Virus record (IMG/VR): IMGVR_UViG_3300025132_008118
Strand: one strand, 5' to 3'
Length of the DNA stretch: 64,000 bases
DNA from: a virus
Part shown: piece after piece, positions 8,187 to 24,031 of the stretch
Layout of the letters: each line of letters opens with the position of its first letter
How positions within the stretch are numbered: the first letter of the stretch is position 1
Position numbers and translations under genes: made by a program
Notes under the pieces: model-generated
What the model saw: the letters and a program-made list of their open reading frames with translations, nothing else
What the model was told of the DNA's origin: nothing
Databases searched by the model: none

Positions 8187-8901
8187 CTTTCAATGTAACG
8201 TAAGTATGCCATCTGTAATTATGCATATCATTAGCGAAAACTTGTAACGAATCGTCTCTAACTTCAAAAATAGGTTTTTCTTTAATATATGAATTTTCCA
8301 TTGTTACTGCATCAGTATATGGTAGTACAGGAGGTAATATTGTATATGTTTCAATTATATTTTCTAGATTTTCTTTTGCACCGTATGGTATTTCAAAACC
8401 AGGGTCATATTTATCATTTAATACAGCTGCTAATGATAAATGTCTTTTACCGCAAAATTCTGGATAATTATCATCAAAATAAAAGTTTTTAAATCCTAAT
8501 GTCTCTGCATGTATAATTCTTTTATATGCGTCTTGGTGATCGTCAAAGATAACTAATGTTTCTTTTGCTTTACTTTTTGATATAAAATCATTTGTTAAAT
8601 TTAAAAAATCAGTAGTTATATATTTTGAATTCTCACCTCTATATACGACCTGCTGTAAAAATGGTTCAATACAAACTATTTTAGTTTCAGGTAGCAATTT
8701 ATTAATTAACCATGTTGTTTGACCTTTAAAGACTCCACTTTCAATTATAGTTGACGGCTTATATTTCTTTAAAATATAAAAAAGGTGAAATAGGTTAACT
8801 GATAATGTACCGCCGCTATTCTCTTTTATCGGTCTACTATCATATATTTCTAAAAATTCTTTTATATAGTTCTTTATATCGGATGTATCTTGTGTTTTCA
8901 T
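8179..8901 (-). CDS. Putative methyltransferase-fold protein
   Basis: IIESGVFKGQTTW, VIFDDHQD, FDDNY; located in glycan island. Confidence 0.5.
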   Translation of the reverse strand: MKTQDTSDIKNYIKEFLEIYDSRPIKENSGGTLSVNLFHLFYILKKYKPSTIIESGVFKGQTTWLINKLLPETKIVCIEPFLQQVVYRGENSKYITTDFLNLTNDFISKSKAKETLVIFDDHQDAYKRIIHAETLGFKNFYFDDNYPEFCGKRHLSLAAVLNDKYDPGFEIPYGAKENLENIIETYTILPPVLPYTDAVTMENSYIKEKPIFEVRDDSLQVFANDMHNYRWHTYVTLKDD

Positions 8902-8902
8902 A

Positions 8903-9520
8903 TTATTTTTTTATAAGGTATTCGTTACCTATATTATATGCTATTTTATAGCCATAATCCAGTATTGTTTCATGAAACTTACTTTCATTATGTTCATATC
9001 GATAAGTAGTAGCTGTATCATATGCTACATATGTCGAACAATGATACGGGTTTTGTGTTTTTAAAATTTTTAAAAGTAACAAATTAGGTATATCTAAAGA
9101 TAGTAAATATTCTAGTGCTTCATCTCCATTTGGGAGTACATTTGTTAAAGCACTAATAATACCGCAATCAAAATTATTAGTAAAATCTTTAGTTAATTCA
9201 TTATAACCTTTAGCATAAAAATTACCTGGAAAGTTTTCTTTTGCTATTTTGATTGCATTTTCCGAATAATCTACACCAGTATAATTTGACCCTTCAATCT
9301 CGGTCTCGTTTTTTAAAACATAATTTAAAAATCCACAGCCACACCCTATATCTATTATTTTTGTGTCTTTATTAAAATTTTTTTTACATACTTCAATTAA
9401 AAAATTCCAATGTTGTGGATAACTTCCTGACTGATATTCATGGGTATTCAATGCAAGTTGTTTTTCATGCAGCTCTTTTATTTTCCAACTATTTAGATAA
9501 GTGTAATTTATTTCTGACAT
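8903..9520 (-). CDS. Class I SAM-dependent methyltransferase
   Basis: IIDIGCGCG motif I, YTGVDYSENAI. Confidence 0.85.
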   Translation of the reverse strand: MSEINYTYLNSWKIKELHEKQLALNTHEYQSGSYPQHWNFLIEVCKKNFNKDTKIIDIGCGCGFLNYVLKNETEIEGSNYTGVDYSENAIKIAKENFPGNFYAKGYNELTKDFTNNFDCGIISALTNVLPNGDEALEYLLSLDIPNLLLLKILKTQNPYHCSTYVAYDTATTYRYEHNESKFHETILDYGYKIAYNIGNEYLIKK

Positions 9521-10415
9521 AATTTAACTCCTCATTAAAAACTTTTTTTAATTTATCTAGAGAATTTTCTACATATAAAGGGTGGTCCCCGTTAAATTTA
9601 TTGCTATAACATGGGCCGCGACCCGATGGTAGATATTCATGAACACCAGCATACTGGACTTCAATTTTTGCTTTTTCAGTATCATTACCTACTACCCATG
9701 GGTAAAATACTTCAAAGAAATAGTTAGGTATTCTGTTACCGGAACCGCCTATATTCCAATAATATTCCATTTTCTTATAGACTTGTTTAGGAAAAACATA
9801 TGAATAATGATACATTTCAACTCCATCGTTATCAAATAGAGTTTTACTATCTAAGTGTTTAGTCGGTAAGGTAGTAGTACCTGCGGGCGGTTTAATAGTT
9901 GGTGGTCGGTGGGTAGACCATTTGCAATTAGGGTACGATTTAAATATTCTTAAAAAATTATCTGTATTTTGTTCAAAACCAGTCAAATAATGATCAAAAC
10001 CTCCGAAAAAAGATTTACTTTGAACTCCAACTGAAGTATATTTTTCATCGAATAATAGTTTATCAATTTTTTCTAAATCATTTTGTTTATAAATTTCATC
10101 ACAATCTAAATTCCATACATAATCTATATCACTATTTAAATGCTCCATATATGCATTACATTGTGAATCTTTTTCATCATATTGGCTATGTATAATTTTA
10201 ATTTTATTCTTAGGATCAGGAAAATTATCTAATATGTAATTGGTTTTATCGGTTGATGTGGTCAACCCCTTACCTTGCCAATATTTTACCGGGCCTTCAG
10301 CAATTAATATTTGGGATGCATAATCATATACACTATTTAAACATTCTTCTAAAACATAGTCACCGTTTAAGACTATCATACCGAACGCTACTTTTTGCTG
10401 ATGTTTAATATTCAT
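9489..10415 (-). CDS. GT2-like glycosyltransferase
   Basis: GMIVLNG..VLEECLNS, WNLDCDE DxD, HYSYV. Confidence 0.75.
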   Translation of the reverse strand: MNIKHQQKVAFGMIVLNGDYVLEECLNSVYDYASQILIAEGPVKYWQGKGLTTSTDKTNYILDNFPDPKNKIKIIHSQYDEKDSQCNAYMEHLNSDIDYVWNLDCDEIYKQNDLEKIDKLLFDEKYTSVGVQSKSFFGGFDHYLTGFEQNTDNFLRIFKSYPNCKWSTHRPPTIKPPAGTTTLPTKHLDSKTLFDNDGVEMYHYSYVFPKQVYKKMEYYWNIGGSGNRIPNYFFEVFYPWVVGNDTEKAKIEVQYAGVHEYLPSGRGPCYSNKFNGDHPLYVENSLDKLKKVFNEELNYVRNKLHLSK

Positions 10416-11311
10416 AAATTATATTCAACTTTTATATTATAACATTTATTAAAATAATCAATATATATTTTTTGCAAATGGCGGTCGTTAAATAAAAGAT
10501 CATTATACGTATGATCTTTATAATTTACACCAGTGTATTGAAAAGTTTTGTTTTCAAAGTCAGGTGTAAATTTTGAAAAATGATTAAAAACAAAAGGTTG
10601 TTTTTTATCACCCCATATTACGTTTTTTTCACTTTCAAAAAAATCAAAATTTAGATATTTATAATGCCATGGAGCTCCATGTGATATATCTTTATCACCA
10701 ATATAAATTTGTTCCTGTGGTATAATACTAAATATACCTTCTAAAAACTTTTGATCGCCGCAAGTAGCTAAATGTTTAGGCATTTTTGTAAATACTGCGT
10801 CTCTCCACCATTTTAAAGCTTTTTTACCATTATCAGTATTTTTAAATACAACAACCCCAACATTAAACAATCCATCAACATTATTAGTAACAACATGTTT
10901 ATGTCTAAACATACAAACGTCCTTACCTTCCATATTATTTAGAATAATATTAAAATCTTGATAAAAATAAATATCAGAATCGATATACGATATATCGATT
11001 TGTTTTTCATTTAACAAATAATAAGAAAAGAATGATGCTAATGACCAAATAAAATCATTTCTATTTCCACCACCCAATTCAGGTTTTGTTTTATCTTTCA
11101 ATTCTAAAAAATCTTTATCTATCTTAACTAAATCGTCGATAAAATACGGTTCAATTTCTGGTAAGTTTAATTCTTTAATTTTGTTAAAAGATTTTTCACA
11201 CAAACAAAGATAATGTAATTTGAAATCACTAGTAGTCTCTTTTAACGATTTATATAATGTTAAACCGTAAAAAAGGTAATTAAAGTCCGATAATGTACAT
11301 ATATTAATCAT
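10412..11311 (-). CDS. GT-A glycosyltransferase
   Basis: ICTLSDFNY, YIDSDIYFY, FNVG..F, CGDQKFLE, GAPWH. Confidence 0.8.
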   Translation of the reverse strand: MINICTLSDFNYLFYGLTLYKSLKETTSDFKLHYLCLCEKSFNKIKELNLPEIEPYFIDDLVKIDKDFLELKDKTKPELGGGNRNDFIWSLASFFSYYLLNEKQIDISYIDSDIYFYQDFNIILNNMEGKDVCMFRHKHVVTNNVDGLFNVGVVVFKNTDNGKKALKWWRDAVFTKMPKHLATCGDQKFLEGIFSIIPQEQIYIGDKDISHGAPWHYKYLNFDFFESEKNVIWGDKKQPFVFNHFSKFTPDFENKTFQYTGVNYKDHTYNDLLFNDRHLQKIYIDYFNKCYNIKVEYNL

Positions 11312-12230
11312 AAAATTTTTCTTTTAATTTTTTATCGATAATTTTTTCAAGTTTATTAAATTTTGAATCTTCAACTATTTCATCTTTTTTATGTGAACTA
11401 TTATGCCAATGCCATGTAAAGGCAGATGTAAATAAATGGTCATTATTTTCCAATGGTTTCGAAAACCACTGCGCTTCAATAACATCACCAGCCCCGGGAT
11501 ATTTATAATTAATACCCCATTCGGTATTAAAATAAGCACATGGTAGAATATCAAATTTCATCTTATTTTTATACACTGAACCGAATAAACTTTTACCCCA
11601 ACATGTAGAATTTGAAACCATTGGTGAATTTTGAATTTCTTCTAAAAATAGTTGACCTAATTTACTTCCTTTTTTAAGATTCATTACCGTGCCACAGCAA
11701 CCTTGTTCTTCGAAATTCAAATCAGACCCCCATACATATAGAAACTCATCTTTTAATAAACAAGACATATCTCTTAAAAAGACTATATCCATATCGATCC
11801 AACAACCACCGTATTTATAACAGCATAATAATCTCAATAAATCGGAATTTAAGTAATAAAGGTTATCTCTTTGATTTATAAAACTCTTACCTTCTACAGG
11901 TGTATCTTTTGAAAGTTCAACTGGGTCATAAATTCTAAAATCTATATATTCTTTAAAAGGTTTGAGTAATTCATTATCAGTAACATCATAATCTGACCAT
12001 AAAATTAATTTATGTTTTTTATAATCTTGTGTTGCAAAATATGATTTAATGCATAATAGTTCTTTTCTATTCCTTATTTCAGAATAAATGTGAAAATTAT
12101 TACTTTCATTATTTTTAACATTTATATCTAAACCCTTCAAATGTTCTAAACATTTCTCATAATCATGATATAAATCCGGAGTATTTTCTATACTTATTTT
12201 CATTATTTGTTTGTATCTACTTTCTCCCAA
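11304..12230 (-). CDS. GT32 (DxD, capsular polysaccharide synthesis-like) glycosyltransferase
   Basis: SDLLRLLCCYKYGGCWIDMD motif. Confidence 0.85.
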   Translation of the reverse strand: MGESRYKQIMKISIENTPDLYHDYEKCLEHLKGLDINVKNNESNNFHIYSEIRNRKELLCIKSYFATQDYKKHKLILWSDYDVTDNELLKPFKEYIDFRIYDPVELSKDTPVEGKSFINQRDNLYYLNSDLLRLLCCYKYGGCWIDMDIVFLRDMSCLLKDEFLYVWGSDLNFEEQGCCGTVMNLKKGSKLGQLFLEEIQNSPMVSNSTCWGKSLFGSVYKNKMKFDILPCAYFNTEWGINYKYPGAGDVIEAQWFSKPLENNDHLFTSAFTWHWHNSSHKKDEIVEDSKFNKLEKIIDKKLKEKFYD

Positions 12231-12952
12231 TCAGGTTCAAGTTTTAAATATTCTGAAAGCTTTTTAACATCAGCTATTCTTTCATCGACTAATTCATACC
12301 ATAGTGCATCACTTTTTCTATCATGTTGATCACTTAACATTCTTTCAGCTACTTTATCTTTTGATCTTTGACCGAATACCCAATGGTTATGTTGTATATG
12401 TATATCTCTTCTATATTTAACTCTATCAAAAGCTTTAAAAGTTTGGTACATCCATTGATCTGACCAATTAATTAAAAACTCTCCTTTACACATATAACCT
12501 AAAATTTCTGTATATTTTTTATGAATAAATGCATTTACACTTATCTCGTCTTTATCTCTATAACCGTCATAACAGTGAACTAATTTAATTTTATCATTAG
12601 GTAAATTATCATCATTAAATTCATCTAATATTTTTTTATCCCAATTACGAGTTTTAAATACCATATCATCTCCAATATAACCAAAAATATTACCCTCAGC
12701 ATGCGGGTAAAGCATATTCCATATTTTGTTTATACCGATAAATTTTTTATCATTTTCGATAACTATAATTTTCACGAAGGGTATTGAATCGGAAATTTTA
12801 TGAACTATTTCTAGTGTAGGGTCATCTGCATCAATTCCAAAAATTAATTCAACATTATTGATATCATTAACTGATGTTATAATTGAACTAATTAAAGTTA
12901 ATTTTAAATTAAGTCTTTCTCGACTCGGTACTAATAAGCTTATTTTATTCAT
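12203..12952 (-). CDS. GT2-like glycosyltransferase
   Basis: SLLVPSRER, GIDADD, IGDDMVF, WSDQW. Confidence 0.8.
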   Translation of the reverse strand: MNKISLLVPSRERLNLKLTLISSIITSVNDINNVELIFGIDADDPTLEIVHKISDSIPFVKIIVIENDKKFIGINKIWNMLYPHAEGNIFGYIGDDMVFKTRNWDKKILDEFNDDNLPNDKIKLVHCYDGYRDKDEISVNAFIHKKYTEILGYMCKGEFLINWSDQWMYQTFKAFDRVKYRRDIHIQHNHWVFGQRSKDKVAERMLSDQHDRKSDALWYELVDERIADVKKLSEYLKLEPDWEKVDTNK

Positions 12953-13734
12953 TTTTTAAATTTTTTTAATATCTGTATTACTTCAGGTAAACTAGTATCG
13001 GGTACACAACCCTGCCAAGCTGGTAAATAACCGTGCTTATTTTTAAATATCTCAGCACTATCCATTATTTTTTGTTGCCAATTATCACCTCTTCTGATAG
13101 AAGAGTTTTCTTCACTACAAGCTTGTTCTTCAATATAGTCCAAACTATTAGCAATATCAGACCACCACCAATACGGGGTACTATACCCAGCCTTAGCTAA
13201 ACTATAAGAATGCTCTACATGTTCGAAATTATTTTTATCAAAATTTTCATCAAATAAGCCTACCTTTTTTAGGCACTCTTTAGTGTAAAAGCAAACTGCC
13301 CCTACGCAGTGTTGGTTTAATGCTAATTTGAAATCACCGTAGTCTATAATTTTTCGCGGTTTTGGATCCCCTTTACTAATATTACCTTTATTTGCTGGAC
13401 CATGGTAACCAAACATCATATGATGTATACCTGTCTTTTTATAAGCATCAATATAAGCTTTGAAAGCATTATCTTTAAACATCATATCATCTTCAACTAT
13501 AAAAATATAATCACACCCCGTTTTTAGTAAATGTTTAAATAATTTATTTTTACTTTTACATACACCAATGTTTTTATCATTATTAATTATGTTATAACCA
13601 GCATTTTGTAAAGATACTTTACCATCATTTACTATTATTAATTCATCATACCATTCTTTATTAATACTTTTTAAACATTTTTCTAAAAAATTATTCCTAT
13701 TACATGTAACAATACCTATTCCTATCTTTGACAT
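12949..13734 (-). CDS. GT2 family glycosyltransferase (start reassigned to MSKIG at 13734)
   Basis: IGIVTCNR, IVNDG, FIVEDD, EHVEH; promoter-like boxes sit just upstream of 13734 and the upstream extension overlaps the opposite-strand gene. Confidence 0.85.
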   Translation of the reverse strand: MSKIGIGIVTCNRNNFLEKCLKSINKEWYDELIIVNDGKVSLQNAGYNIINNDKNIGVCKSKNKLFKHLLKTGCDYIFIVEDDMMFKDNAFKAYIDAYKKTGIHHMMFGYHGPANKGNISKGDPKPRKIIDYGDFKLALNQHCVGAVCFYTKECLKKVGLFDENFDKNNFEHVEHSYSLAKAGYSTPYWWWSDIANSLDYIEEQACSEENSSIRRGDNWQQKIMDSAEIFKNKHGYLPAWQGCVPDTSLPEVIQILKKFKK

Positions 13735-13762
13735 TATATATATTTTATAATAAATAATTAAT

Positions 13763-14134
13763 ATGTCAACCGAAATAAGTATTAAACAAATACCAGCAGT
13801 AACAGAAATTAATAATAATGATTTATTACTGGTCCAAACCACCAATTCAACTAATTCGTTAAAATTTGAAAACTTTGTTGTGGGTTTGGAAAATACTACA
13901 TTTGCACCGGTTATTAGTGCTAATTCGACAAATATTGGTTATGTTAGTTCAGTAATAGATGAAACGTTTTTCGAAGCTCCTACAATATCTAATGGACCTA
14001 ATCTACTAACTGACGACACAACTAGTATCGCAAATTCTGCTCGTCCTACTTCTATGATACCGATAAATATAACATCAGGGGGAGAAAAAAGAACCTATTA
14101 CTTCTTATTATCAGGAGGTGACCCTGTTACGTAG
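13763..14134 (+). CDS. Hypothetical protein, probable virion structural protein
   Basis: SIKQIPAVTEINNNDLLLV resembles tail/baseplate-associated N-termini; TAAATA box upstream. Confidence 0.45.
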   Translation: MSTEISIKQIPAVTEINNNDLLLVQTTNSTNSLKFENFVVGLENTTFAPVISANSTNIGYVSSVIDETFFEAPTISNGPNLLTDDTTSIANSARPTSMIPINITSGGEKRTYYFLLSGGDPVT

Positions 14135-14888
14135 TTAAATCGTCAAGCTTTTTAATTTTTTCTAATTGCTCTTTAAACTCATCTTCATCCTTTTTAGATA
14201 AACCTTGAGATTCTAATAACTTCTCCATTATATCTAGATTTTCAGGATTAAAGATTTCTGAACCACCGCCATCACCACCAATAATATCACCTTCTGCATC
14301 GATATATAGTTTAATCATTTGCATACGTTCTTGTTTATTACCAAATACTTCAATTAATGCTGGTGAATCATCTCTAGGGAAGAATGGATTATCCTGAGGA
14401 TTTTCATGATAATGTCTCTGTAGTACTTTAAAAAAGCTATCAATTTCCTTAATGTATTTTTCATCAACTTCTCTAACACCGTTATCTTCTACTTTAATAC
14501 CATTAAATTTAGTCATTGGTATAAAGAATATAATATCTAAATTAGTTAAAGCCTCTCTAACAATTGGAATACACTCATCAACAAAATCTTCATCAACATC
14601 ACTATCTTCCTGACTCATTGCCCACATAGAATATACTAAGTTATCTAGAGGGCATCTATCAAAAATAACTTTATCCCCTTTCCTAAATTCTTTTAAGGTT
14701 TCAACCATATAATCAAGGATAGCTTTTTGAGATTCTTTAGTGGTTTGTTTGCTATGAGGTAAACCTTTTTCATTCAAAACATCTCTATATGTCTTTACTT
14801 CTCGACCATACATATCCCACTCATTTAAAAAGTCTTGTATTAACGTACTTTTACCAACATTTGCTGTACCACAGATTGCAATTCTCAT
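14127..14888 (-). CDS. P-loop NTPase/nucleotide kinase-like (AAA_28/NadR-type)
   Basis: IAICGTANVGKSTL Walker A, IFDRCPLDNLVY. Confidence 0.75.
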   Translation of the reverse strand: MRIAICGTANVGKSTLIQDFLNEWDMYGREVKTYRDVLNEKGLPHSKQTTKESQKAILDYMVETLKEFRKGDKVIFDRCPLDNLVYSMWAMSQEDSDVDEDFVDECIPIVREALTNLDIIFFIPMTKFNGIKVEDNGVREVDEKYIKEIDSFFKVLQRHYHENPQDNPFFPRDDSPALIEVFGNKQERMQMIKLYIDAEGDIIGGDGGGSEIFNPENLDIMEKLLESQGLSKKDEDEFKEQLEKIKKLDDLTT

Positions 14889-14946
14889 ATACTATTATTT
14901 TATAATAAAAATTTGATATATCAAGTCTATATACTATAATTAATAT
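14889..14946. promoter_or_regulatory. Divergent sigma70-like promoters sharing palindrome TTGATATATCAA
   Basis: Plus: TTGATA-N16-TATAAT-N6-ATG(14947). Minus: TTGATA-N16-TAAAAT-N8-ATG(14888). Confidence 0.6.
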
Positions 14947-15654
14947 ATGATTACGTTTGATGAAAAGTCTCATACTTATAAATGTAGTAAAACTGGTAGA
15001 GAATTAATATCAGCAACTACTCTAATAGGTAAGTATAAGAAGCCATTTGATAAAATGGAAAATGCAACTCGAGTAGCCAATAGAGAAGGCTTAGATGTAG
15101 AGTTTGTATTAGATATGTGGGAAAAGGAAAAGAATAGAGCTTGTGATTATGGTACCAATATTCATAAAGTTATGGAAGACTATTTAACTGAAGGGGTTCA
15201 AGAGGAAGAGCATGAATCTTTATATTCTTCGTTTAATAAGTGGAAGCATATCTTTAAGAAGTTTCCCACTTTATTATGTGAAGAGAAATTACATGATTTA
15301 GATAATTTTATTGCAGGTACAGCAGATTTAATTTATGAAAACAAGACCCATTTTATGGTTGGAGATTTTAAAACTAATAAAGCGTTTAATTTCTTCTCCC
15401 CTTATAATGAGTTTATGCTTAAACCAATGGATCATTTAAGTGCATGTGAGTTTAATACATACGGTTTACAATTATCGTTATACGCTTACTTACATGAAAA
15501 GAGTTCAGGTAAAAAATGCACAGGGTGTGTTATTTTTTATAAGGATAAAGAAAATAAGTTTTATCCAATCAGGGTTAACTATATGAAGAATGAAATTATT
15601 GCATTAATTGAAGATTACAATAATCCCAATTCACTATCTTCAAAAATTGCTTAA
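14947..15654 (+). CDS. PD-(D/E)XK (Cas4-like) exonuclease
   Basis: GTNIH, IAGTADLI, VGDFKT, YGLQLSLYA. Confidence 0.85.
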   Translation: MITFDEKSHTYKCSKTGRELISATTLIGKYKKPFDKMENATRVANREGLDVEFVLDMWEKEKNRACDYGTNIHKVMEDYLTEGVQEEEHESLYSSFNKWKHIFKKFPTLLCEEKLHDLDNFIAGTADLIYENKTHFMVGDFKTNKAFNFFSPYNEFMLKPMDHLSACEFNTYGLQLSLYAYLHEKSSGKKCTGCVIFYKDKENKFYPIRVNYMKNEIIALIEDYNNPNSLSSKIA

Positions 15655-16219
15655 TATATTTTTCTCTATTAGGTCCATATTTTTTATAATAAGCATGCTC
15701 CCAAACATCTATACCAAGTAGTATAGTTACGTCTGAATCCATTAAAGGGTTATCTTGGTTATTAGTAGGTATTAATTCTAATTTATTACCTTTCTTAACT
15801 AACCATAACCAACCAGAGCCAAAATGAGCTAAAGCTTCTTCAACAAATTTAGCTTTAAAATTATCTACACTCTTATATTGCTTTTCTATTAACTCTTTAA
15901 TAGGTCCTGAAATTGTTTTCCTATCTGGTGACATCATATTCCAGAATAACTGGTGATTATAGGCACCCCCTGCATTATTACGAATTGCATCTTTTTTAGA
16001 TTTTGCTTTTTTTACTATTGATAGTAAATCTTGCTTATTAGTAGCTGGTAATGCTGCATTTAATTTTTTAACATAACCTTTATAATGTTTATTAAAATGC
16101 AAGTTCATTGTTTCAGCATCTATACTAGGCTCTAAAGCATCTAAAGCATAAGGAAGTTTGATAGCTTTTATACCACCTACTTCTTCTAAAATTAAATCTG
16201 CTAATTTGTTATAATTCAT
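15596..16219 (-). CDS. sod: Fe/Mn superoxide dismutase
   Basis: LPYALDALEP, LHFNKHYKGY, NNAGGAYNH, FGSGWLWL, DVWEHAYY. Confidence 0.95.
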   Translation of the reverse strand: MNYNKLADLILEEVGGIKAIKLPYALDALEPSIDAETMNLHFNKHYKGYVKKLNAALPATNKQDLLSIVKKAKSKKDAIRNNAGGAYNHQLFWNMMSPDRKTISGPIKELIEKQYKSVDNFKAKFVEEALAHFGSGWLWLVKKGNKLELIPTNNQDNPLMDSDVTILLGIDVWEHAYYKKYGPNREKYIKQFLKIVNWDYCNLQLMQ

Positions 16220-16413
16220 TTTTTACCACCTTTCATATTTGCACACCAATGATACATTTTACCCTTCTCTCCACCATATTTTTTAGCTTTACGTCTTAAT
16301 TCGGTAACTGAACCTTTACAACTAGCTCCAGATTTTTTTACCCTACCTGGTCTACTTTTACCTTTTACCTTTTTATCAGCATAGTTTTCAAAATATGTAA
16401 TAAAATTAATCAT
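16216..16413 (-). CDS. Small basic phage protein, probable internal virion protein
   Basis: 65 aa, K/R-rich, N-terminus MINFITYFE, upstream TAAATA. Confidence 0.55.
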   Translation of the reverse strand: MINFITYFENYADKKVKGKSRPGRVKKSGASCKGSVTELRRKAKKYGGEKGKMYHWCANMKGGKK

Positions 16414-16432
16414 TTAAATATATTTAGTTCAA

Positions 16433-17077
16433 TTAAGTTATGATAATTTGACCCCAATTTCTACCTTGTCCGTTGGAGCTATCACTACTATCATTATAAT
16501 AATATGTTCCAGATGCTACTGGAGTAAAGAATATAGGACCTAATGTAGATGAGTTATTTACAACCCCTTGAGCTAAATCTGAAGTACCAACACCTGATAC
16601 ATTTCTAATCGTAAACGGTCGACCTTCTTCTCGAGGATCAAAGCTATTAATACCTAGATTTTCAAATCTAATAGTATCGCCCATATTAAAGTTTAATGTT
16701 CTATTTGAACCATAACTATCAGCTGGAGATAATGCACCATTTCTATCAACAGCATTTGAACCATTAGTTGAAAACTTCCATGCGGTAGCCCAACCTGTAC
16801 CGGCATTTCCAGTTATAAATGATGCACTAATTGCAAATGTTTCAGTGGGAGTCCCACCACCACTACTACTACTATCACTACTATCACTATCACCTGGTGT
16901 AAAGATAGCGCCTTTAATTTTAAACGATTTATATTGTGTATTACTGTTTGTATTAATAGATATTTCTTTATTTAAATCATCCCTATTTTTAAAATTACTT
17001 GGTTTGGAATTCGATATGGACTGATCACGCATCAAATTATTTTTAGTTATCGCTATGTATTTTTTTCTATTAATCAT
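16433..17077 (-). CDS. Hypothetical Ser/Gly/Thr-rich protein, probable virion surface protein
   Basis: SDSSDSSSSGGG linker followed by beta-rich domain (GDTIRF...PFTI...GTYYY, cupredoxin-like spacing). Confidence 0.45.
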   Translation of the reverse strand: MINRKKYIAITKNNLMRDQSISNSKPSNFKNRDDLNKEISINTNSNTQYKSFKIKGAIFTPGDSDSSDSSSSGGGTPTETFAISASFITGNAGTGWATAWKFSTNGSNAVDRNGALSPADSYGSNRTLNFNMGDTIRFENLGINSFDPREEGRPFTIRNVSGVGTSDLAQGVVNNSSTLGPIFFTPVASGTYYYNDSSDSSNGQGRNWGQIIIT

Positions 17078-17432
17078 TTTCTTGTATTCTTTGGGTTTTC
17101 TTTTTACTAGCCTCTTTTTTCTTTTTAATATAATTAAAAGCAGCTCTTAAACTCTTTTTCTTTTTAGGGTCTTTAGTTCTACTAACTGCAGCTCTAACTC
17201 TTTGATGGATTAAATTAATAATTTGTGATTGTCTTTTATGAGGTTTTGACTTAAATGTAGATTTATTTAAAGTATCCCTTATATCAGCTACTGAACTAAA
17301 TTTAACGCTTACTGTATCTTTAGGGTTTTCATCAGTATATAATCTTCTACCGGAACCTTTAGGTTTTTTACCTGTACCTTTCTTTGGATCAGCTTCTAAT
17401 AATATTTTTTCTACTAAAGTGTTAAACTTCAC
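17070..17432 (-). CDS. Basic phage protein (GTG start)
   Basis: GTGKKPKGSGRRLYTDENP; TAAATA-N5-GTG; N-terminus MKFNTLVEKILLE. Confidence 0.55.
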   Translation of the reverse strand: MKFNTLVEKILLEADPKKGTGKKPKGSGRRLYTDENPKDTVSVKFSSVADIRDTLNKSTFKSKPHKRQSQIINLIHQRVRAAVSRTKDPKKKKSLRAAFNYIKKKKEASKKKTQRIQEND

Positions 17433-17469
17433 CTAAATATTTATTATAGAAAGATAAAATAAAAATGTT

Positions 17470-17952
17470 ATGTTTGGACTTGTTACAATGCTACTTACAA
17501 CACTCGGTGCAACGGGTATGGGATCAATGCTTAAAATCGTCGGCGGTCTTTTTGCTGGTATATCAGATGCTAAAGAAGCAAAACATAAAAGAGAGCTTAT
17601 TAGAGATATGCAGCTTCAAAAAGCTGATCTTGAATTTCAAAAAGCCGTCTTCGGTGACATGGATAAAGACACATCTGCTTTTACCAGGGGTACTCGCAGG
17701 CTCATTGCTCTTATCGGGATGTGTAACTTTTTCGTCATCTCAGTCCTCTGTACCCTCTGGCCAGGAGTCGAACTTATTACCTTCACCCCTCCAGAAAACA
17801 AAGAGTCAATCAAGCTCATCTGGGGATTGGTTACTTTCCCCTCAGGAGCAGACATTACCACCGCAATTACAACGGGGCACATTGCTTTGGTATCAATCGC
17901 CACTTTGGGAGCGATAATTGGTTTCTACTTTACCCCGGGTGGTAAAAGATAA
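17470..17952 (+). CDS. Membrane protein, possibly holin-like
   Basis: Hydrophobic segments at N-terminus, centre and C-terminus; basic C-terminal GGKR. Confidence 0.5.
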   Translation: MFGLVTMLLTTLGATGMGSMLKIVGGLFAGISDAKEAKHKRELIRDMQLQKADLEFQKAVFGDMDKDTSAFTRGTRRLIALIGMCNFFVISVLCTLWPGVELITFTPPENKESIKLIWGLVTFPSGADITTAITTGHIALVSIATLGAIIGFYFTPGGKR

Positions 17953-20001
17953 TTATTTAGAAGTTGCTCTATAAACTTGATCCCAATCTTCTCCTGGATC
18001 ATTTTCTTTTAGATCTGCTATACGATCGATCATCATATTATAGTAGAATTCTAACTCTGCATTTTCTTTTATTAAAGTAGTTAGTATACTTTCTGCTTTT
18101 ACCCAGTCTCGTTTTTTGTAATGCTTTAAGAATGTATCATGCAATAAATAGTTAAATTGGTCAGTTAATACCGTGTAAACTGTTATACCTTCTTTCTTAC
18201 CTTTAACAGCAATTTTATCTAATTCTATGAATTTAAATTTATTTCGAATATGTTTGATAGTTTCTTCACCTAATAGAATACCTACACCGTATGACTTAGT
18301 TTGTCCTTCAAGTCTTGCAGCTAAATTAACTCCATCTCCTAAACATGTATAATCGAATCTTTGATCAGAACCCATATTACCTACAACAACTCTACCAGTA
18401 TTAATACCAATACCTATTGCCAACGGTTTCTTACCTTCTTCAATTAACTGTATATTAAGATTATTTAATTCTAATTGCATTTTTATTGCAACTTCAATTG
18501 CTTTAACACGGTGAGATAATTGATCTTCAGGTAAAGGTGCATTCCAAAATGCCATTAATGCGTCACCGATATATTTGTCAATTGTACCTCCTGATTCCAT
18601 TACTATACGAGTCATTGGGGTTAGATATCGATTAATAAGATAAGTTAAACCTTGAGGGTTATCTTTAAACTGCTCACTAATAGTAGTAAAGCCTCTAATA
18701 TCAGAAAATAATATAGTTAAGTCTTGCGTATCACCTCCAAGTTTTAACATATTAGGGTTCTTTTGAAGTTTTTTAACTATTTCAGGAGCTAGGTAATGCT
18801 CAAATTGTTTTTTAATTAACATTTTACCTTTATATTCATGTATAAATCTGAAGAATATAGCTAATGTAAATACTATAAAAATACTATAAACAGGGTATGT
18901 AAAATCGTATAATAAATTATGATTACTGAATAACCAAAAACCATATATAGGTAAAGTAATTATCACTACACTTATCAGTAAACTGTTTATAACCCATAGA
19001 AACCTAAGCGCACATAGCGTCAACAGTAAGCTCAGTGCTATAGTAAATAGTATTTCATATAAGGTAGCTTCAACTGGTCTTACTAATATATTTTCATTAG
19101 CTAAAGTTTCGACAACTTGTAAATTTAATTCATGACCATTACTAACCTTTATCGGCGTTGCTACTGAATTAGATAAACCTTCTGCTGTTAATGCAATTAC
19201 TGCTATGGTGTCCTTTACAGATGACCAATCTTCATTAGTTAATGAAATTTTATTAAACTCGGTATCATAGTTAATCCATACCCTGGCATTTTCATCAGTT
19301 TCAAAAGTACCAACATTCCTCAATCTAATAGCACTTACACCTGCATGGTCGACTTTAACTTGGTAAGATCTATCATCTACTAAAGTTCTTAAAATTTCTA
19401 ATGGTAAAGTTGGGTAAACTTCATCTTTAACTTGTATCATTAAAGGCATTCTACGTACAACACCATCAAGCTCAGGGGCAGTAACAGTCATACCTACTCC
19501 TTTTGAAAACATACCAACACTTTCAATAGGGCCTATACCATTAGGATAATCAAATAACCAATCATTTAACCTTACCGACCCTATTGTTGTTATATTCTGT
19601 TTAACTAATTCCCCCTTACCTTGTAAAGCTGCTGATTGAGTAGTAACTACAGGATAATGATATAAAATATCGGTAAAAGTTTTATCTCCTCCTAATCTAT
19701 CTTCTTCTGCAAATAAAATAGGTAAAACGACTAAACCTGCACCGTGGTAGTATGCTTTTTCTATATAATGTGATAATACATCTCTTTTCCAAGGCCATTG
19801 TCCATATTTTTCTAAACTAGCTTCATCTATTTCTATAATAGTAAATAAATCCGACGTTTTAGTATTTTGTGTTTTTTGGTAGTAATCTAAACCTTTTAAT
19901 CTTAAGATTTCTACCGGATACGGGTCATATATTCTTAATACTGAAAATAAAACTGCAGCTATAGTACAATATATAAATGGTTTGAATTTTTTAAGTTTCA
20001 T
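17953..20001 (-). CDS. CHASE2-domain class III adenylate cyclase
   Basis: N-terminal TM, CHASE2 (IIEIDEASLEKYGQWPWKR, DGVVRRMP), 3-4 TMs, catalytic LFSDIRGFT, IDKYIGDA, YTCLGDGVNLAARLEG. Confidence 0.95.
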   Translation of the reverse strand: MKLKKFKPFIYCTIAAVLFSVLRIYDPYPVEILRLKGLDYYQKTQNTKTSDLFTIIEIDEASLEKYGQWPWKRDVLSHYIEKAYYHGAGLVVLPILFAEEDRLGGDKTFTDILYHYPVVTTQSAALQGKGELVKQNITTIGSVRLNDWLFDYPNGIGPIESVGMFSKGVGMTVTAPELDGVVRRMPLMIQVKDEVYPTLPLEILRTLVDDRSYQVKVDHAGVSAIRLRNVGTFETDENARVWINYDTEFNKISLTNEDWSSVKDTIAVIALTAEGLSNSVATPIKVSNGHELNLQVVETLANENILVRPVEATLYEILFTIALSLLLTLCALRFLWVINSLLISVVIITLPIYGFWLFSNHNLLYDFTYPVYSIFIVFTLAIFFRFIHEYKGKMLIKKQFEHYLAPEIVKKLQKNPNMLKLGGDTQDLTILFSDIRGFTTISEQFKDNPQGLTYLINRYLTPMTRIVMESGGTIDKYIGDALMAFWNAPLPEDQLSHRVKAIEVAIKMQLELNNLNIQLIEEGKKPLAIGIGINTGRVVVGNMGSDQRFDYTCLGDGVNLAARLEGQTKSYGVGILLGEETIKHIRNKFKFIELDKIAVKGKKEGITVYTVLTDQFNYLLHDTFLKHYKKRDWVKAESILTTLIKENAELEFYYNMMIDRIADLKENDPGEDWDQVYRATSK

Positions 20002-20906
20002 TGTTGAATAATATTTATAGACACGCTGCCCCCGGCGTTTAGAACACCTTCAGTTACTGTCCCTTTATTGTCGTATTTTAAAGATACGTCTGAAATAGAA
20101 GGTACAATTAATTTAATTTTATTTTCATTATCAGACGTGAAAGTAGCCTTATCATCTTCTATTTCAAAAATAGAATCAGTATCTTCTTCATTAAAATCTA
20201 AATATGAAGCTTCTTCTAGTAAATCTTCTTGATTTTCATTTTCAACTTTTTCATCTTCTATATTTTCATTCAATTCGGACTCCATTTTTACGATATCGTT
20301 TTTTCTATCGTTATCTATAATTGGTTTAGATGGTGAAGTAAATGACGAAGTAACTGATGTAACTTCAAAAGCTTCTGTTAAAACAACTGACCCAATATCA
20401 TTAAAAACTTCAATTGATCCTACATATCGATTACCATTATTATCCTCAGAAGGTAATAAAGTAAAGGTACTTTTACCGGATTCTTTAACTACAACTTCAA
20501 AGTCTGTACCTCTAACTGATACCGAAGCAGTTGGTGTAGTTATTTTAATATTTTCTTTACTATTTTTAGCTATTAGACCTGATGTATATCTTAACGTGCC
20601 AAATGATGCTTTTAAATTAACTTTTCCCTTTTTACTATTATTATCATATACAAATTCATCAATTATTAATGATGAATATTTTGATATTGTAACTTTAGTT
20701 TCATCAACAAATAAAATTTTTACAGTGCCGTCTAAAGTCTCTATTTCATCATACATTTCAACTGGTGTACCTATACCAGTTAAATATTTTTCTGAACCTC
20801 TAGTAATTTGCGCTGATTGTGACTGAAAAGAAACCTCCCCTACTTTAGCTAAAGCGGAGGAGGTTAATAAAAATAAAACTACTAAAAAATTAAGGACCGA
20901 CTTCAA
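19998..20906 (-). CDS. Secreted FecR-domain protein (likely TTG start at 20906)
   Basis: Signal peptide ending SALA, DEIETLDG..KILFVDET, ITTPTASVSVRGTDF, GSIEV. Confidence 0.85.
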   Translation of the reverse strand: MKSVLNFLVVLFLLTSSALAKVGEVSFQSQSAQITRGSEKYLTGIGTPVEMYDEIETLDGTVKILFVDETKVTISKYSSLIIDEFVYDNNSKKGKVNLKASFGTLRYTSGLIAKNSKENIKITTPTASVSVRGTDFEVVVKESGKSTFTLLPSEDNNGNRYVGSIEVFNDIGSVVLTEAFEVTSVTSSFTSPSKPIIDNDRKNDIVKMESELNENIEDEKVENENQEDLLEEASYLDFNEEDTDSIFEIEDDKATFTSDNENKIKLIVPSISDVSLKYDNKGTVTEGVLNAGGSVSINIIQQ

Positions 20907-21675
20907 TAAACGTACCTTGCGCAAAATCAGGAATTGGAACTGGTTGTGTATAGCTTCCATTAAAATTACTTATAACGTCAAGACCTTCTAATCCAGCAGT
21001 ATAAGTACCATCTGATTGAATAATAGTAAATGTTGTATCGTTACCATAGTGGGTAAGCTCTAATGTTTGATATTCAGATCCCGATTGAACTAAGTTAATT
21101 GCATTATTATCACCTTGAAGTTGTAATGTTTGACTATGACCTAAACCTAAATTACCACCTTCTTGAATCGATGTAATAGTATTGCCATTACCAATTAGTG
21201 AAAAATCAGAAGAAGCTGCTATATTATTATTAAGATAAAAATCTAATACATTTGCATTACCTATAATGTAATTCTTAAGATATTGTTGAGAAATAACCGA
21301 AGCTTCAGACGATGTATCATCTTTTTTAACTGTAATATCATTACCATTACCTAAAATAGTATTAGTAAAAGTATTTTGATCACCTGTTACTATAATATCT
21401 TGAAGATTAGCATCACCTTCTATATAAAGACTAAAAGCAGTTTGGTCACCATCCCATTCAATATCTAATTCATTACTATTACCGATTTGAGAAATATCGA
21501 AATCACTATTATCCCCTGCAATAGTAGATATAGCGGTAGAAGTACCTATTCTATTACCTGAACCGACTTGTGTAATATCAAAGGTCCCGGTAGAACCTTC
21601 CTGCTCTAAGTATATTTCATTATTTGCAAATGCAATAGTACTTGTTAATAATAATGCTAGTAGTGTTGTTTTCAT
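20890..21675 (-). CDS. Curlin-repeat (CsgA/CsgB-like) secreted protein
   Basis: Signal peptide MKTTLLALLLTSTIAFA; repeated Q-x-G-x-x-N/G-N-x-N beta repeats (TQVGSGN, SQIGNSN, LQGDNN, ILGNGN); TAAATA-N5-ATG at 21675. Confidence 0.75.
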   Translation of the reverse strand: MKTTLLALLLTSTIAFANNEIYLEQEGSTGTFDITQVGSGNRIGTSTAISTIAGDNSDFDISQIGNSNELDIEWDGDQTAFSLYIEGDANLQDIIVTGDQNTFTNTILGNGNDITVKKDDTSSEASVISQQYLKNYIIGNANVLDFYLNNNIAASSDFSLIGNGNTITSIQEGGNLGLGHSQTLQLQGDNNAINLVQSGSEYQTLELTHYGNDTTFTIIQSDGTYTAGLEGLDVISNFNGSYTQPVPIPDFAQGTFIEVGP

Positions 21676-21708
21676 ATTAATATTTAGGAAAATCAACAAT
21701 TTTTTTTA

Positions 21709-22500
21709 TCATTCGATAAAATTCCACAAACCTTTTTCATCACCTTGCAACATTAAATCAATAATACATGCATCAATAGCTTTCCTTGTAGCAATTGAAA
21801 CTCTTTCATTTCTTGCATAACCTATTTCAGCCTCACCGTAATCATTAAATTCACCTAAATTTAATTCATCGGTATCAAAATATTTAAAAAATGTTGCTCC
21901 TGTACCGACACTTAATATAGTTTTACTAACAGTTGAAGATAATAATATTTGACCTGAATTAACACTAACAAATCTCATTGAAACAGTTACATTATCTTTT
22001 CTATACTGTTTTGAAACGCCAATACCCAAATAACTCGCTCCTATACCGCCTGATACAATATTACTTTCATATGAAATAATACCACCTTCAACCAACATAC
22101 CAGCAAATAATAATGCTCCTAAATCTTCTTCAGACTCATTAAAAGATTTTCTATTAGTTTTGATAATATTTCTTTCATTTAATAAGTTAGCAAGATTTGC
22201 TCTTTCAACAACATTAAACCATTTACCATTACCTGCTTCTATTAAAGATTCTATTACCCAAGCTTCACCACCTTGCGTAACTGCTGATGAAAAAGATGCA
22301 TAATTATCAGCAGTTTTTCTTTGACCTGTTTTATCATCAAAAGAGTAAACTGCTACAAATATCGGGGCTTCCTTTATATCTTTCATATCACCTTGTTCAA
22401 TCATATATGGTGGTTTCTGCACCCAAGGTGGATTTTGTACAGGTGTAGTTACACACCCTACCATTAATAATAAAGTTAAACTAATTAAAATTTTTATCAT
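21709..22500 (-). CDS. csgG: Curli secretion channel lipoprotein CsgG
   Basis: Lipobox LMVGC; AVYSFDDKTGQ, SAVTQG, WFNVVER..L.NLLNER, GGIISYE, VTVSMRFVSVNSG. Confidence 0.92.
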   Translation of the reverse strand: MIKILISLTLLLMVGCVTTPVQNPPWVQKPPYMIEQGDMKDIKEAPIFVAVYSFDDKTGQRKTADNYASFSSAVTQGGEAWVIESLIEAGNGKWFNVVERANLANLLNERNIIKTNRKSFNESEEDLGALLFAGMLVEGGIISYESNIVSGGIGASYLGIGVSKQYRKDNVTVSMRFVSVNSGQILLSSTVSKTILSVGTGATFFKYFDTDELNLGEFNDYGEAEIGYARNERVSIATRKAIDACIIDLMLQGDEKGLWNFIE

Positions 22501-22961
22501 GGGGTATCAGTCGTTGCCGGTGGTATATACAGCGAACCGATCGGTATAACTATACTAGTTGTTGAACCGTCAATTAGGTCGTTAATAGTAATATAAATTT
22601 GATCATCAGAAGATTTATACCAAGTTAATTCACTATCTTCAATTGCAAAAGTACCTGTATCTAAACCGTCATCAGCAAATAATTGTTCAGTAACTTGCTT
22701 GGCTAGTTCAGAATATATTCTAGCCTGTAAGCTTGATAAAAATGTATTAACAGCTGATCTTTCTTCAGCTAATTGAGCTTGCAACTGAGCTGATTCTAAC
22801 TCATCTTCAATAGCTTTTTTACGATTAAATGAAATTTGCTCTATAGTCAATTTATGAGCTGAATAACCTACCCCTGTAAATGTTGGTGATTTAAATTGAA
22901 ATACAATCTCACTACCAAATAACATGCAAGGTAGTAATAAACAAAGAAAAATATTTTTCAT
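22497..22961 (-). CDS. csgF: Curli assembly factor CsgF
   Basis: Signal peptide then SEIVFQFKSPTFTG; F...LQARIYSELA; adjacent to csgG. Confidence 0.85.
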   Translation of the reverse strand: MKNIFLCLLLPCMLFGSEIVFQFKSPTFTGVGYSAHKLTIEQISFNRKKAIEDELESAQLQAQLAEERSAVNTFLSSLQARIYSELAKQVTEQLFADDGLDTGTFAIEDSELTWYKSSDDQIYITINDLIDGSTTSIVIPIGSLYIPPATTDTP

Positions 22962-22974
22962 AAAAATTACTTAT

Positions 22975-23286
22975 TTACTTTTTAGTTTTTTTCAACAATT
23001 CTTCTTCTTTTAACTTATATTCTTTCTCTAGTAATTCTCTTCTTTCTTTTTCTTGTAGAATCATTTTTAATTTTATATTAAGACGAATCATATCATTATC
23101 TAACATTCTTACTTTATCAATTAATTCAATTAAAGTCTTTTTAGATGAACCGATTGTAGGTGATATATCTTTTGTTACCCACTGCCATACATAATAAACA
23201 AAATAACCTAAACCTACTGCAGCTATAATTGGAAATCCAAAGTCATTTACTAACTTTGAAAAATGGTCTATCATTTGATCATTCAT
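22975..23286 (-). CDS. Small single-TM coiled-coil protein (YvrJ-like)
   Basis: FGFPIIAAVGLGYFVYYVW TM followed by coiled coil. Confidence 0.55.
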   Translation of the reverse strand: MNDQMIDHFSKLVNDFGFPIIAAVGLGYFVYYVWQWVTKDISPTIGSSKKTLIELIDKVRMLDNDMIRLNIKLKMILQEKERRELLEKEYKLKEEELLKKTKK

Positions 23287-23288
23287 AA

Positions 23289-23570
23289 TTAATCCTTTCT
23301 TGCATCTTCTTTACCTTCAGAAGCTGCTATCCTATCCAAGTTTGGTTCTACATTAAAAGCGTGGGATATTAAAGTATCTATTTTAACTATTTCATTTGTC
23401 ATAACATCAACCCTATTCTGTAGACTTCCTATCATACCCCCAAGACCAGCTACTGATCCCTTAACGCCATTTAGTATAAATTTTAGAATAATAAATATAA
23501 ATAGACCACCAGATAAAGCTCCAGCAATTGGAAAGCCAACTTCTGTCAAAAACCTAATAAACCCACTCAT
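23289..23570 (-). CDS. Small single-TM coiled-coil protein (YvrJ-like), paralog of 22975..23286
   Basis: VGFPIAGALSGGLFIFIIL TM followed by heptads; TAAATA upstream. Confidence 0.55.
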   Translation of the reverse strand: MSGFIRFLTEVGFPIAGALSGGLFIFIILKFILNGVKGSVAGLGGMIGSLQNRVDVMTNEIVKIDTLISHAFNVEPNLDRIAASEGKEDARKD

Positions 23571-23650
23571 ATAGAATATTTATTAAAACTAACTAGTTGA
23601 AATATATATTATAATAAGTAAATATAAAAGATAAATAATATACCGGGGAT

Positions 23651-24031
23651 ATGGAACAATTAATTTTACACTTGACAGGAGATTATCTGCTACAAAGTGA
23701 CTGGATGGCTCTTAATAAGATTAAAAATAGTAGAGCAGCAGCAACACATGCTTTTGTATATTCAATCCCGTTTTTATTATTACAACCATCATTAGAAGCT
23801 TGGTTTGTAATATTTTTTACACACTTTATTATTGATCGTTTTGCTATTGCAAAATATATAGCATTTGCTAAAACTAAAGTAGCTCCCTGCAAGTGGTGGC
23901 CATCTTGGAAAGATTGCCACGTTAACGGTTATAATAAAGATATACCTGTTTGGTTATCGACATGGTTGTTAATTATTACTGATAATACAATCCATTTAAT
24001 TATCAATTACTTAGCTTTAAAGTATCTATAA
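23651..24031 (+). CDS. DUF3307 family membrane protein
   Basis: HLTGDYLLQSDWMA, HAFVY, THFIID, DNTIH. Confidence 0.85.
   Translation: MEQLILHLTGDYLLQSDWMALNKIKNSRAAATHAFVYSIPFLLLQPSLEAWFVIFFTHFIIDRFAIAKYIAFAKTKVAPCKWWPSWKDCHVNGYNKDIPVWLSTWLLIITDNTIHLIINYLALKYL

Follow-up and report, generated by a model that had tools for sequence, protein, structure and literature searches.

A curli secretion, FecR and CHASE2 adenylate cyclase block in an uncultured T4-like phage: a possible surface-to-cytoplasm sensor

Introduction

Why should a phage carry, in a single run of genes, the parts of a curli-type export system together with a FecR-domain protein and a membrane-bound cyclase? The question is raised by a 64,000-nucleotide stretch of viral DNA (IMG/VR record IMGVR_UViG_3300025132_008118; the whole stretch is called the window below), in which seven minus-strand open reading frames (ORFs), spanning 23570..17953, encode in this order two small proteins, TM1 and TM2, then CsgF, CsgG, a curlin-repeat protein, a FecR-domain protein and a CHASE2 cyclase. 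An earlier sequence-only reading of the window had described seven tightly packed genes of these identities and in this order, and the ORFs, together with Pfam assignments above the curated cut-offs for all five named genes, bear the description out. We find that the unit is, with near certainty, one more instance of the viral curli (type VIII secretion system, T8SS)-FecR-adenylate cyclase block already published for marine phages, carried here by a large uncultured T4-like phage. What the window itself adds is modest, namely confirmation of the pattern in a further phage lineage, whose backbone is far from that of isolates.

Curli genes in such phages were first reported by Zaragoza-Solas et al. 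in 2020 (PMC7029224), who dealt with the curli part and mention neither cyclase nor FecR; the same is true of the description of phage Melnitz by Buchholz et al. in 2022 (PMC9004378). The complete block was published by Wittmers et al. in 2022 (PMC9599517). The available part of that paper gives its content as one or two 'HK' genes, CsgF, CsgG, CsgA/B, FecR, a second CsgA/B and adenylate cyclase, finds it in both podo- and myo-pelagiphages, documents its phylogenies, worldwide distribution and metatranscriptome signal, and reports it at all 65 GOV2.0 stations. CHASE2 is nowhere named in it. The streamlined hosts, according to these three papers (the third as far as available), have no such envelope structure. 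The sequence-only reading had regarded the curli part as not wholly new; the degree of novelty that it saw in the block does not stand, FecR and the cyclase too having been in print in 2022.

The seven genes are inherited as a block

The unit consists of the following genes.

23289-23570, minus strand: TM1, 93 aa; phrog_18771; no Pfam family
22975-23286, minus strand: TM2, 103 aa; phrog_18771 at 3.2e-28; no Pfam family
22497-22961, minus strand: CsgF; Pfam CsgF 3.9e-16; phrog_35372; hydrophobic segment at residues 3-21
21709-22500, minus strand: CsgG, homologue of the curli (type VIII) outer-membrane lipoprotein channel; Pfam CsgG 3.5e-49
20890-21675, minus strand: curlin-repeat protein; Curlin_rpt 1.1e-4, 22.5 bits against a cut-off of 20.7
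19998-20960, minus strand: FecR-domain protein, 320 aa; Pfam FecR 1e-09 at residues 72-166; phrog_37870
17953-20001, minus strand: CHASE2 cyclase; CHASE2 3.7e-33, Guanylate_cyc 3.9e-24; full-length phrog_35576 at 2.5e-190

Scans of IMG/VR viral contigs for this block kept the best 80 matches, that is, the loci most like the window proteins. A CsgG profile matched at least 592 contigs, and marine viral data contain the block very commonly. Among the best 80 of these contigs, 32 loci had at least 3 kb of sequence upstream and at least 7 kb downstream, and CsgF, curlin, FecR and cyclase genes were each found in all 32, with TM2 in 30 and TM1 in 28. The synteny search around csgG that the sequence-only reading had proposed as a check thus turned out strongly positive, with both FecR and the cyclase at 32/32 CsgG-anchored loci of the best 80. 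When TM1 was used as the anchor (at least 581 contigs matched), the 39 loci of the best 80 with at least 8 kb downstream contained TM2 (39), the cyclase (39), FecR (38), CsgG (37), curlin (37) and CsgF (36); the arrangement was co-directional in 18, convergent in 16 and different in 3. The IMG/VR contigs that carry relatives reach 185 kb. The linkage of the curli, FecR and cyclase genes is not due to chance. In a quick unrooted tree (LG+G4), from which near duplicates (L003, L004, L006, L010, L012 and L014; L numbers denote loci of our comparison) and ORFs shorter than 590 or longer than 900 aa were left out, the cassette cyclases form one clade of 25 rows with an SH-aLRT of 100.

The Pelagibacter phage HTVC008M (gp011-gp019) and the Methylophilales phage Melnitz (gp97-104) carry the same gene set in the same order. 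The window cyclase is 38-39 % identical to the cyclases of these two phages, both of which, unlike the window, carry an additional curlin gene that separates FecR from the cyclase. Two viral-labelled loci (L190 and L244) contain a six-gene block with no TM1 within 10 kb on either side, and two others (L187 and L217) have TM2 only; these four may be cell-derived copies or represent another arrangement.

A sister form of the cassette exchanges the channel. In L110 (a 148-kb viral contig; 12455-19940, minus strand) and L025/L026 (L026 2318-12473), CsgF, CsgG and curlin are missing, whereas the cyclase, TM1 and TM2 are kept, and the locus has gained a FecR-headed protein of 1299-1317 aa, a TolC-like OEP, a short HlyD-like protein and a 250-aa protein. 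The giant protein has a Pfam Cadherin match in L110 only, and the 250-aa protein of L110 matches only the membrane domain of type I secretion system (T1SS) ABC permeases, with no ATPase. The cyclase of this TolC/HlyD form lies at the base of the cassette clade. That the type of channel changes while FecR, cyclase and TM1/TM2 stay is the strongest argument for a joint function of the block, and for placing TM1 and TM2 on the cyclase side of it.

Cellular copies of the block are also found. Two Caulobacteraceae metagenome-assembled genomes (L065, on a contig of 82 kb, and L019, on one of 32 kb) contain CsgF-CsgG-curlin-curlin-FecR-cyclase without TM1 and TM2. The L065 block (6038-12058) sits among ordinary metabolic genes and has a G+C content of 50-52 %, compared with 57-60 % in its flanks. 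The cyclases of both genomes nest inside the phage clade of our quick unrooted tree, and we read the Caulobacteraceae copy as a phage-to-cell transfer. Directly upstream of the L065 block is a gene for a calcineurin-like phosphoesterase, a candidate cyclic AMP (cAMP) phosphodiesterase. Elsewhere in the Alphaproteobacteria, a CsgG-family match was present in 78 of 401 sampled genomes and was strong in 8 including the seed; CHASE2 was searched in 10 genomes, and none of the seven strong-CsgG genomes other than the seed has a CHASE2 gene near csgG. An origin of the joined block in bacteria was rejected on account of this 0/7 linkage and the nesting of the Caulobacteraceae copy in the phage clade. 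It has been stated in print that the two gene sets are not linked in bacteria, which is nearly, not strictly, true.

The proteins encoded by the unit

The curli part resembles the E. coli CsgBAC/CsgDEFG system in having CsgG, CsgF and a curlin subunit, from which genes a fibre is inferred here, and differs from it in the addition of FecR, cyclase and TM1/TM2. Over residues 4-261, CsgG matches the solved structures of its E. coli counterpart (3x2r/4q79/6l7a) at E 1.9e-42, and it has a lipobox cysteine at position 16, G15 and C16 being invariant in the CsgG family alignment. Its pore-loop stretch reads DNYASFSS as against YPASNFST in E. coli; we take this stretch to be the constriction loop, with Tyr, Asn and Phe as key residues. 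After a predicted signal peptide, whose cleavage was read by eye, CsgF begins SEIVFQFKSPTFTG; phmmer found no match to it in the PDB. The curlin ORF is listed as 20890-21699 from a TTG, and the ATG at 21675 is the likely start, since it opens a signal peptide (MKTTLL...). The signal peptide is followed by about ten x-G-x-x-N repeats. Among NCBIfam models the protein matches CsgA (2.5e-5) and CsgB (4.4e-4), both below cut-off, and its family profile finds the curlin repeat protein 8c50 (2.3e-15) and the CsgA fibril 8enq (4.7e-4) in the PDB. It is predicted to be a CsgA/B-like fibre subunit. An N-terminal hydrophobic leader is present in each of CsgF, CsgG, the curlin and the FecR protein. The absence of csgE noted by the sequence-only reading was upheld: CsgE (PF10627) was found neither in the five related viral records searched, where the E. 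coli control was positive, nor among the seven genes, and Pfam likewise detected no CsgD or CsgC among the seven.

TM1 has a single hydrophobic segment (residues 15-33 by hydropathy) and a conserved C-terminal tail (..DNRV..M..D..K.D....GKEDARKD), with 20 invariant columns in the family alignment. In TM2 the N-terminal segment is moderately hydrophobic, no 19-residue stretch reaching a Kyte-Doolittle (KD) value of 1.6, and the tail is charged and coiled-coil-like. Both match phrog_18771 and are therefore paralogues. None of 325 TM1-related protein clusters has a Pfam family, and the nearest named Atlas clusters to TM2, YvrJ (0.86) and Holin_BhlA (0.83), are leads only, scores below 0.9 being often due to chance by the tool's own statement. 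The small proteins are called histidine kinases in the available part of Wittmers et al. (PMC9599517), for which TM1 and TM2 of the window give no support: no Pfam, NCBIfam or PADLOC family was matched, and none of 29 longer relatives contains a kinase domain. These longer relatives carry assorted Pfam families; with two exceptions each is a cluster of one sequence, and with one exception each occurs on a single contig, and they are probably fused gene calls.

Along the unit, TM1 and TM2 are separated by 2 nt and TM2 and CsgF by 13 nt, CsgF and CsgG overlap by 4 nt (ATGA), CsgG and curlin are 9-33 nt apart, and curlin and FecR overlap by 71 nt. The FecR and cyclase genes again share 4 nt, an ATGA that joins the stop of the one with the start of the other, which we count in favour of their acting together.

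A predicted relationship of the FecR protein to adhesin plugs

FecR-domain ORFs lie within 3 kb of 20 of the 38 bacterial (non-cassette) CHASE2-cyclase loci that are flanked on each side by 3 kb or more. The two genes are a widespread bacterial pair, as the sequence-only reading held when it called them a module. Many of the FecR-domain ORFs near CHASE2 cyclases are giant; in those of at least 450 aa the FecR domain is always N-terminal (24/24), and in Bradyrhizobium a giant protein of 1601 aa with FecR, cadherin, Big_9 and RTX parts is encoded directly upstream of the cyclase. A profile built from 18 such giant-protein FecR heads matched one solved structure, 5ix9 (E 1.4e-12). This structure is RIN, a periplasmic beta-sandwich that plugs the TolC duct and thereby retains the MpIBP adhesin (PMC5550230), and the LapA retention module has been modelled on it (bioRxiv 10.1101/198937). 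The phage FecR profile in turn aligns with the giant-head profile over 178 columns (hhalign 99.9 %, E 8e-33), suggesting kinship between the phage protein and the plug by which type I-secreted giant adhesins are held in the periplasm. We found no literature joining RTX adhesin retention with FecR, and the CHASE2 and FecR literature that we found is without phage work.

The window protein itself starts with a signal or anchor segment (16-34), followed by a FecR/RIN-like beta domain (about 41-215), an acidic linker (216-275; 60 residues, of which 24 are D/E) and a conserved C-terminal stretch of 45 aa. In the available part of Wittmers et al. (PMC9599517) FecR is treated as an iron regulator, in contrast to the kinship with an adhesin plug suggested here. 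Iron sensing after the fashion of the E. coli ferric-citrate system, with the pore tied to iron or siderophore uptake, takes its support from the Pfam domain name and one suggestion in the available text of that paper, and we consider it very improbable: the protein has only a leader of about 40 residues and then PF04773, with no cytoplasmic anti-sigma N-domain, no FecI-type (extracytoplasmic function, ECF) sigma factor and no TonB-dependent receptor or transducer is encoded among the seven genes and ten scanned neighbours, and its relatives are the heads of giant cadherin/RTX proteins that match 5ix9.

The cyclase active site

The cyclase is laid out as an N-terminal transmembrane segment, a periplasmic CHASE2 domain (PF05226, 115.6 bits, residues 16-326), a transmembrane cluster at about 320-387, a class III domain (425-609) and a 70-aa C-terminal extension. 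Hydropathy places hydrophobic segments at 6-24, 334-352 and 369-387, which is the topology of CHASE2 receptors. The catalytic residues are kept: D434 and D480 (the metal-binding Asp pair), K476, N559 and R563. The sequence-only reading had pointed to these residues in its SD, GD and N/R motifs, correctly; it had also named a Lys/Asp pair (IDKY and FDY) as specifying ATP, and here it erred, as the partner of K476 is T552 and not D550. T552 lies seven residues before N559 and aligns with the Thr of Pseudomonas aeruginosa CyaB (RMDYTIIG..VNLASRLE, PDB 3r5g), which the window cyclase matches at 5.3e-36. We take the position seven before the catalytic Asn to be the one that specifies the base. D550, the Asp of 'FDY' two residues upstream of T552, is an Asp in just 28 of 60 distinct cassette-type cyclases. 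The window enzyme is thus of class III, Lys/Thr type, presumably the subtype labelled class IIIb, and is predicted to make cAMP.

The 60 distinct cassette-type cyclases, a class that takes in L016, L020, L022 and L032 by their place in the tree (their flanks are short and hold no other cassette genes), are invariant at D434, D480, K476 and R563. They fall into two site types with no mixed forms: Thr/Ser552 with Asn559 in 28, including the window, and Asp552 with Ser559 in 32, including Melnitz as well as L002, L113 and L144. The equivalent of Asn559 is retained in 48 of 50 cellular relatives. The catalytic domain also matches PycC of the Pycsar defence system (2.7e-29), a match that reflects the shared fold; Pycsar was set aside as an identity for the unit, the other six proteins having no PADLOC match.

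A possible envelope-spanning sensor

What, then, could the seven genes do together? Our preferred answer, held tentatively and at somewhat below an even chance, is that they form one envelope-spanning device by which an infected cell would sense its surface and report to the cytoplasm. CsgG and CsgF would form a channel in the outer membrane, through which the curlin-repeat protein would leave to build a surface fibre. The FecR-type protein, as a relative of the adhesin plug, would stay in the periplasm at or under this channel. The periplasmic CHASE2 domain would read the state of FecR (bound, pulled, released or absent), and the class III (Lys/Thr) domain would then alter the cytoplasmic output of cAMP, with TM1 and TM2 as phage-specific inner-membrane accessories on the cyclase side. 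The proposal builds on the gene identities, the intact catalytic residues, the strict co-inheritance, the relationship between FecR and the plug, the pairing of FecR with CHASE2 in bacteria and the exchange of channels; from these we infer all physical contacts, as well as what is sensed, what the enzyme makes and how the phage benefits.

Cellular systems offer partial parallels. CyaD1, CyaD2 and CyaK of S. meliloti have the same CHASE2 plus class III cyclase architecture as the window enzyme. According to the available portions of two studies, S. meliloti CHASE2 cyclases sense an extracellular protein by way of NsrA, a beta-barrel of the outer membrane (PMC13001267), and CyaD1 without CHASE2 is constitutive, making CHASE2 a brake (PMC5498481). 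The dependence on NsrA and the constitutive truncated CyaD1 are precedents for the sensor. The S. meliloti system differs in that its outer-membrane partner is NsrA and not CsgG, no FecR partner is reported, it is cellular, and its receiver, Clr, is known. A periplasmic FecR protein beside a CHASE2 receptor is also seen in the Burkholderia 'BiofilmReg' operon of a FecR(LysM) protein and a CHASE2 histidine kinase (PMC5192318, as far as available) and in the PA4035-like pair of P. aeruginosa; BiofilmReg differs in its output through a histidine kinase and response regulator, in the LysM on the partner and in having no secretion channel. The FecR family of the cassette is homologous to the heads of giant cadherin/RTX proteins, which match RIN, and this brings it near the retained adhesin systems LapA/LapEBC (Pseudomonas fluorescens) and MpIBP (Marinomonas primoryensis). 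The T1SS form of the cassette has, like these, a TolC-like duct, and with it a giant FecR-headed protein. In the window, by contrast, FecR is free and lies beside CsgG, neither LapD nor LapG is among the seven genes, and the predicted readout is cAMP rather than cyclic di-GMP.

Several observations weigh against a sensor of this kind. No contact between any two proteins of the unit is reported in the cited papers, and Melnitz-infected cultures showed no clumping (PMC9004378). No receiver for the signal was found, the cyclic nucleotide (cNMP)-binding domain PF00027 being absent from five related viral records, although this is weak evidence because the records are fragments of 41-91 % estimated completeness. 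The presence of Ser in place of the catalytic Asn in 32/60 cassette cyclases implies that product or rate may differ in those enzymes, the window enzyme being canonical. The block is not always complete: in the available part of Wittmers et al. (PMC9599517) FecR and the cyclase are described as absent at times and the cyclase as rarer in podophage versions, and since our scans kept the 80 loci most like the window, such reduced forms, for example cyclase-less podophage versions, may be under-sampled. One reduced form was encountered in L140 (9995-14215), where TM1, an inserted 278-aa ORF (no Pfam match), TM2 and a convergent cyclase are found; no FecR or CsgG is present at this locus, and a radical SAM/SPASM gene comes next. 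With regard to FecR, the phage profile matches 5ix9 directly at an E value of only 0.023, and the window protein is free, 320 aa long and equipped with a Sec-type leader instead of being the head of a type I substrate, so that the analogy with the plug rests on homology and not on architecture. A curlin-like C-terminus of FecR, which was also considered, was not significant (hhalign probability 13.9 %) and remains a lead.

A more specific version of the sensor makes FecR a free-standing plug that docks under CsgG or threads its acidic linker into it, is coupled to the fibre and is read by CHASE2, such that contact events (attachment to particles or cells, or the arrival of a second phage) would be turned into cAMP. 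We regard this version as a doubtful but real possibility. Were it true, it would be the first phage-encoded surface-contact sensor. If FecR is the partner of CHASE2, a large family of orphan sensors would gain a class of protein ligand, and the phage block, its TolC/HlyD form and the bacterial loci of giant adhesin plus cyclase would be one fibre-to-cAMP system.

Alternative explanations

The explanation already in the literature (Zaragoza-Solas 2020, PMC7029224; Wittmers 2022, PMC9599517, as far as available) is that the block makes a curli-like amyloid coat, serving host aggregation ('sibling capture') or as a shield against superinfection, with FecR and the cyclase serving only to tune expression or secretion. 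CsgG, CsgF and a true curlin-repeat subunit are indeed all present with export signals, and the metatranscriptome expression and the occurrence at every GOV2.0 station described above (PMC9599517) agree with it. Against this stand the failure of Melnitz-infected cultures to clump (PMC9004378) and the finding of no transcription factor or cAMP receptor in the block or in the five related viral records; the swap of the T8SS for a motorless TolC/HlyD set, with FecR, cyclase and TM1/TM2 kept, is also left unexplained. We consider a coat in this sense unlikely, though a serious contender; it largely overlaps with the sensor, and a fibre and a sensor are both possible at once.

Could the curli set and the FecR/CHASE2 cyclase set instead be two unrelated morons that happen to share a hypervariable island without any coupling? 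The two sets are normally unlinked in the sampled Alphaproteobacteria (0/7), the FecR-cyclase pair occurs alone in many bacteria, and reduced forms exist both in L140 and, in the available part of PMC9599517, in podophages. An uncoupled pair does not sit well with linkage in 32/32 CsgG-anchored and 37-39/39 TM1-anchored loci (best 80 in each case), which persists down to a cyclase identity of about 38 % and through inversions. Nor does it account for FecR being always between curlin and cyclase, or else fused to the adhesin in the T1SS form, or for the single, fully supported clade of cassette cyclases. On balance we think this explanation quite improbable.

The third alternative was put forward as a hypothesis for Melnitz by Buchholz et al. 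(PMC9004378), and makes the block a pore for timing lysis: CsgG/CsgF would be gated or act in the manner of a pinholin, TM1 and TM2 would be holin- and antiholin-like, and the cyclase would be a timer or a sensor of superinfection. TM1 and TM2 would suit such a role in being about 100 aa long with a hydrophobic N-terminal segment (only TM1 passes KD 1.6), in their resemblance to YvrJ and BhlA, which are leads only at Atlas scores often due to chance, and in occurring in the phage copies while being absent from the copy on a bacterial chromosome. However, a pore that lies in the outer membrane could not depolarise the inner membrane, a complete fibre subunit, superfluous for a pure pore, is present in 32/32 CsgG-anchored loci of the best 80, and Pfam shows no endolysin or spanin gene adjoining the unit in the window. 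We give this explanation little credence.

Signals for expression of the unit

If the seven genes work as the proposed sensor, when would they be expressed? The sequence-only reading had seen late-type TAAATA boxes before TM1, csgF and the curlin gene. The hexamers are there, at -12 for TM1, -16 for csgF and -11 for the curlin ATG, and the cyclase has a fourth at -16; their description as late-type does not hold.

23582-23577, 22977-22972, 21686-21681 and 20017-20012, minus strand: TAAATA hexamers before starts in the unit
23571..23650, no strand: upstream spacer, 80 nt, AT-rich, between TM1 and the divergent DUF3307 gene

TAAATA lies within 40 nt upstream of 22 of 79 window genes, in 10 of them at exactly -11 (TAAATA-N5-ATG), and no other hexamer is as frequent in the 25 nt ahead of window gene starts. 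The full T4 late box, TATAAATA, is in contrast depleted in the window (16 observed against 34.7 expected). Being window-wide and start-proximal, TAAATA therefore provides no evidence of late promoters for this unit, and it looks like a translation-start signal of a non-Shine-Dalgarno kind or a leaderless-type promoter.

The 80-nt spacer is probably the promoter region of the unit. A sigma-70-like match is found at 23628-23601 (minus strand, 9/12), in a promoter scan whose total of 45 is not above that of shuffled sequences (38.1 +/- 6.0). The minus-strand gene upstream of the unit is closed by a terminator-like hairpin (24061-24034); within 17953-23570 the minus strand has no terminator-like site, the only further one (20760-20781) belonging to the plus strand. 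One run, guessed to be of RNA, contains short contigs that cover portions of the block; these were rejected as evidence of expression.

The phage and the neighbouring genes

The window is AT-rich (G+C 24-34 % per 2-kb step), and DNA nearly identical to it is present in marine and viral metagenome runs. Its replication genes are of T4 type (family B DNA polymerase, SbcCD and helicases), accompanied by auxiliary genes for SOD, PhoH and PTPS. The DNA polymerase (61925-64000, plus strand) is about 32 % identical to those of the nearest listed isolates, which are Pelagibacter phage Mosig, cyanophages and Sinorhizobium phiM phages; the phage therefore belongs to a T4-like lineage without cultured members. 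The genes flanking the unit are common only to the uncultured contigs L003-L008, one of them of 185 kb, and are not shared with HTVC008M or Melnitz.

On the cyclase side, a 160-aa ORF (17470-17952, plus strand) converges with the cyclase gene and ends one base before its stop, leaving zero spacer. No Pfam or PHROG family matches it, and relatives of it occur in L003-L005, L007 and L008, which belong to the loci with the same flanks as the window. At the other end, a gene for a DUF3307 (phrog_6676) membrane protein (23651-24031, plus strand) is divergent from TM1.

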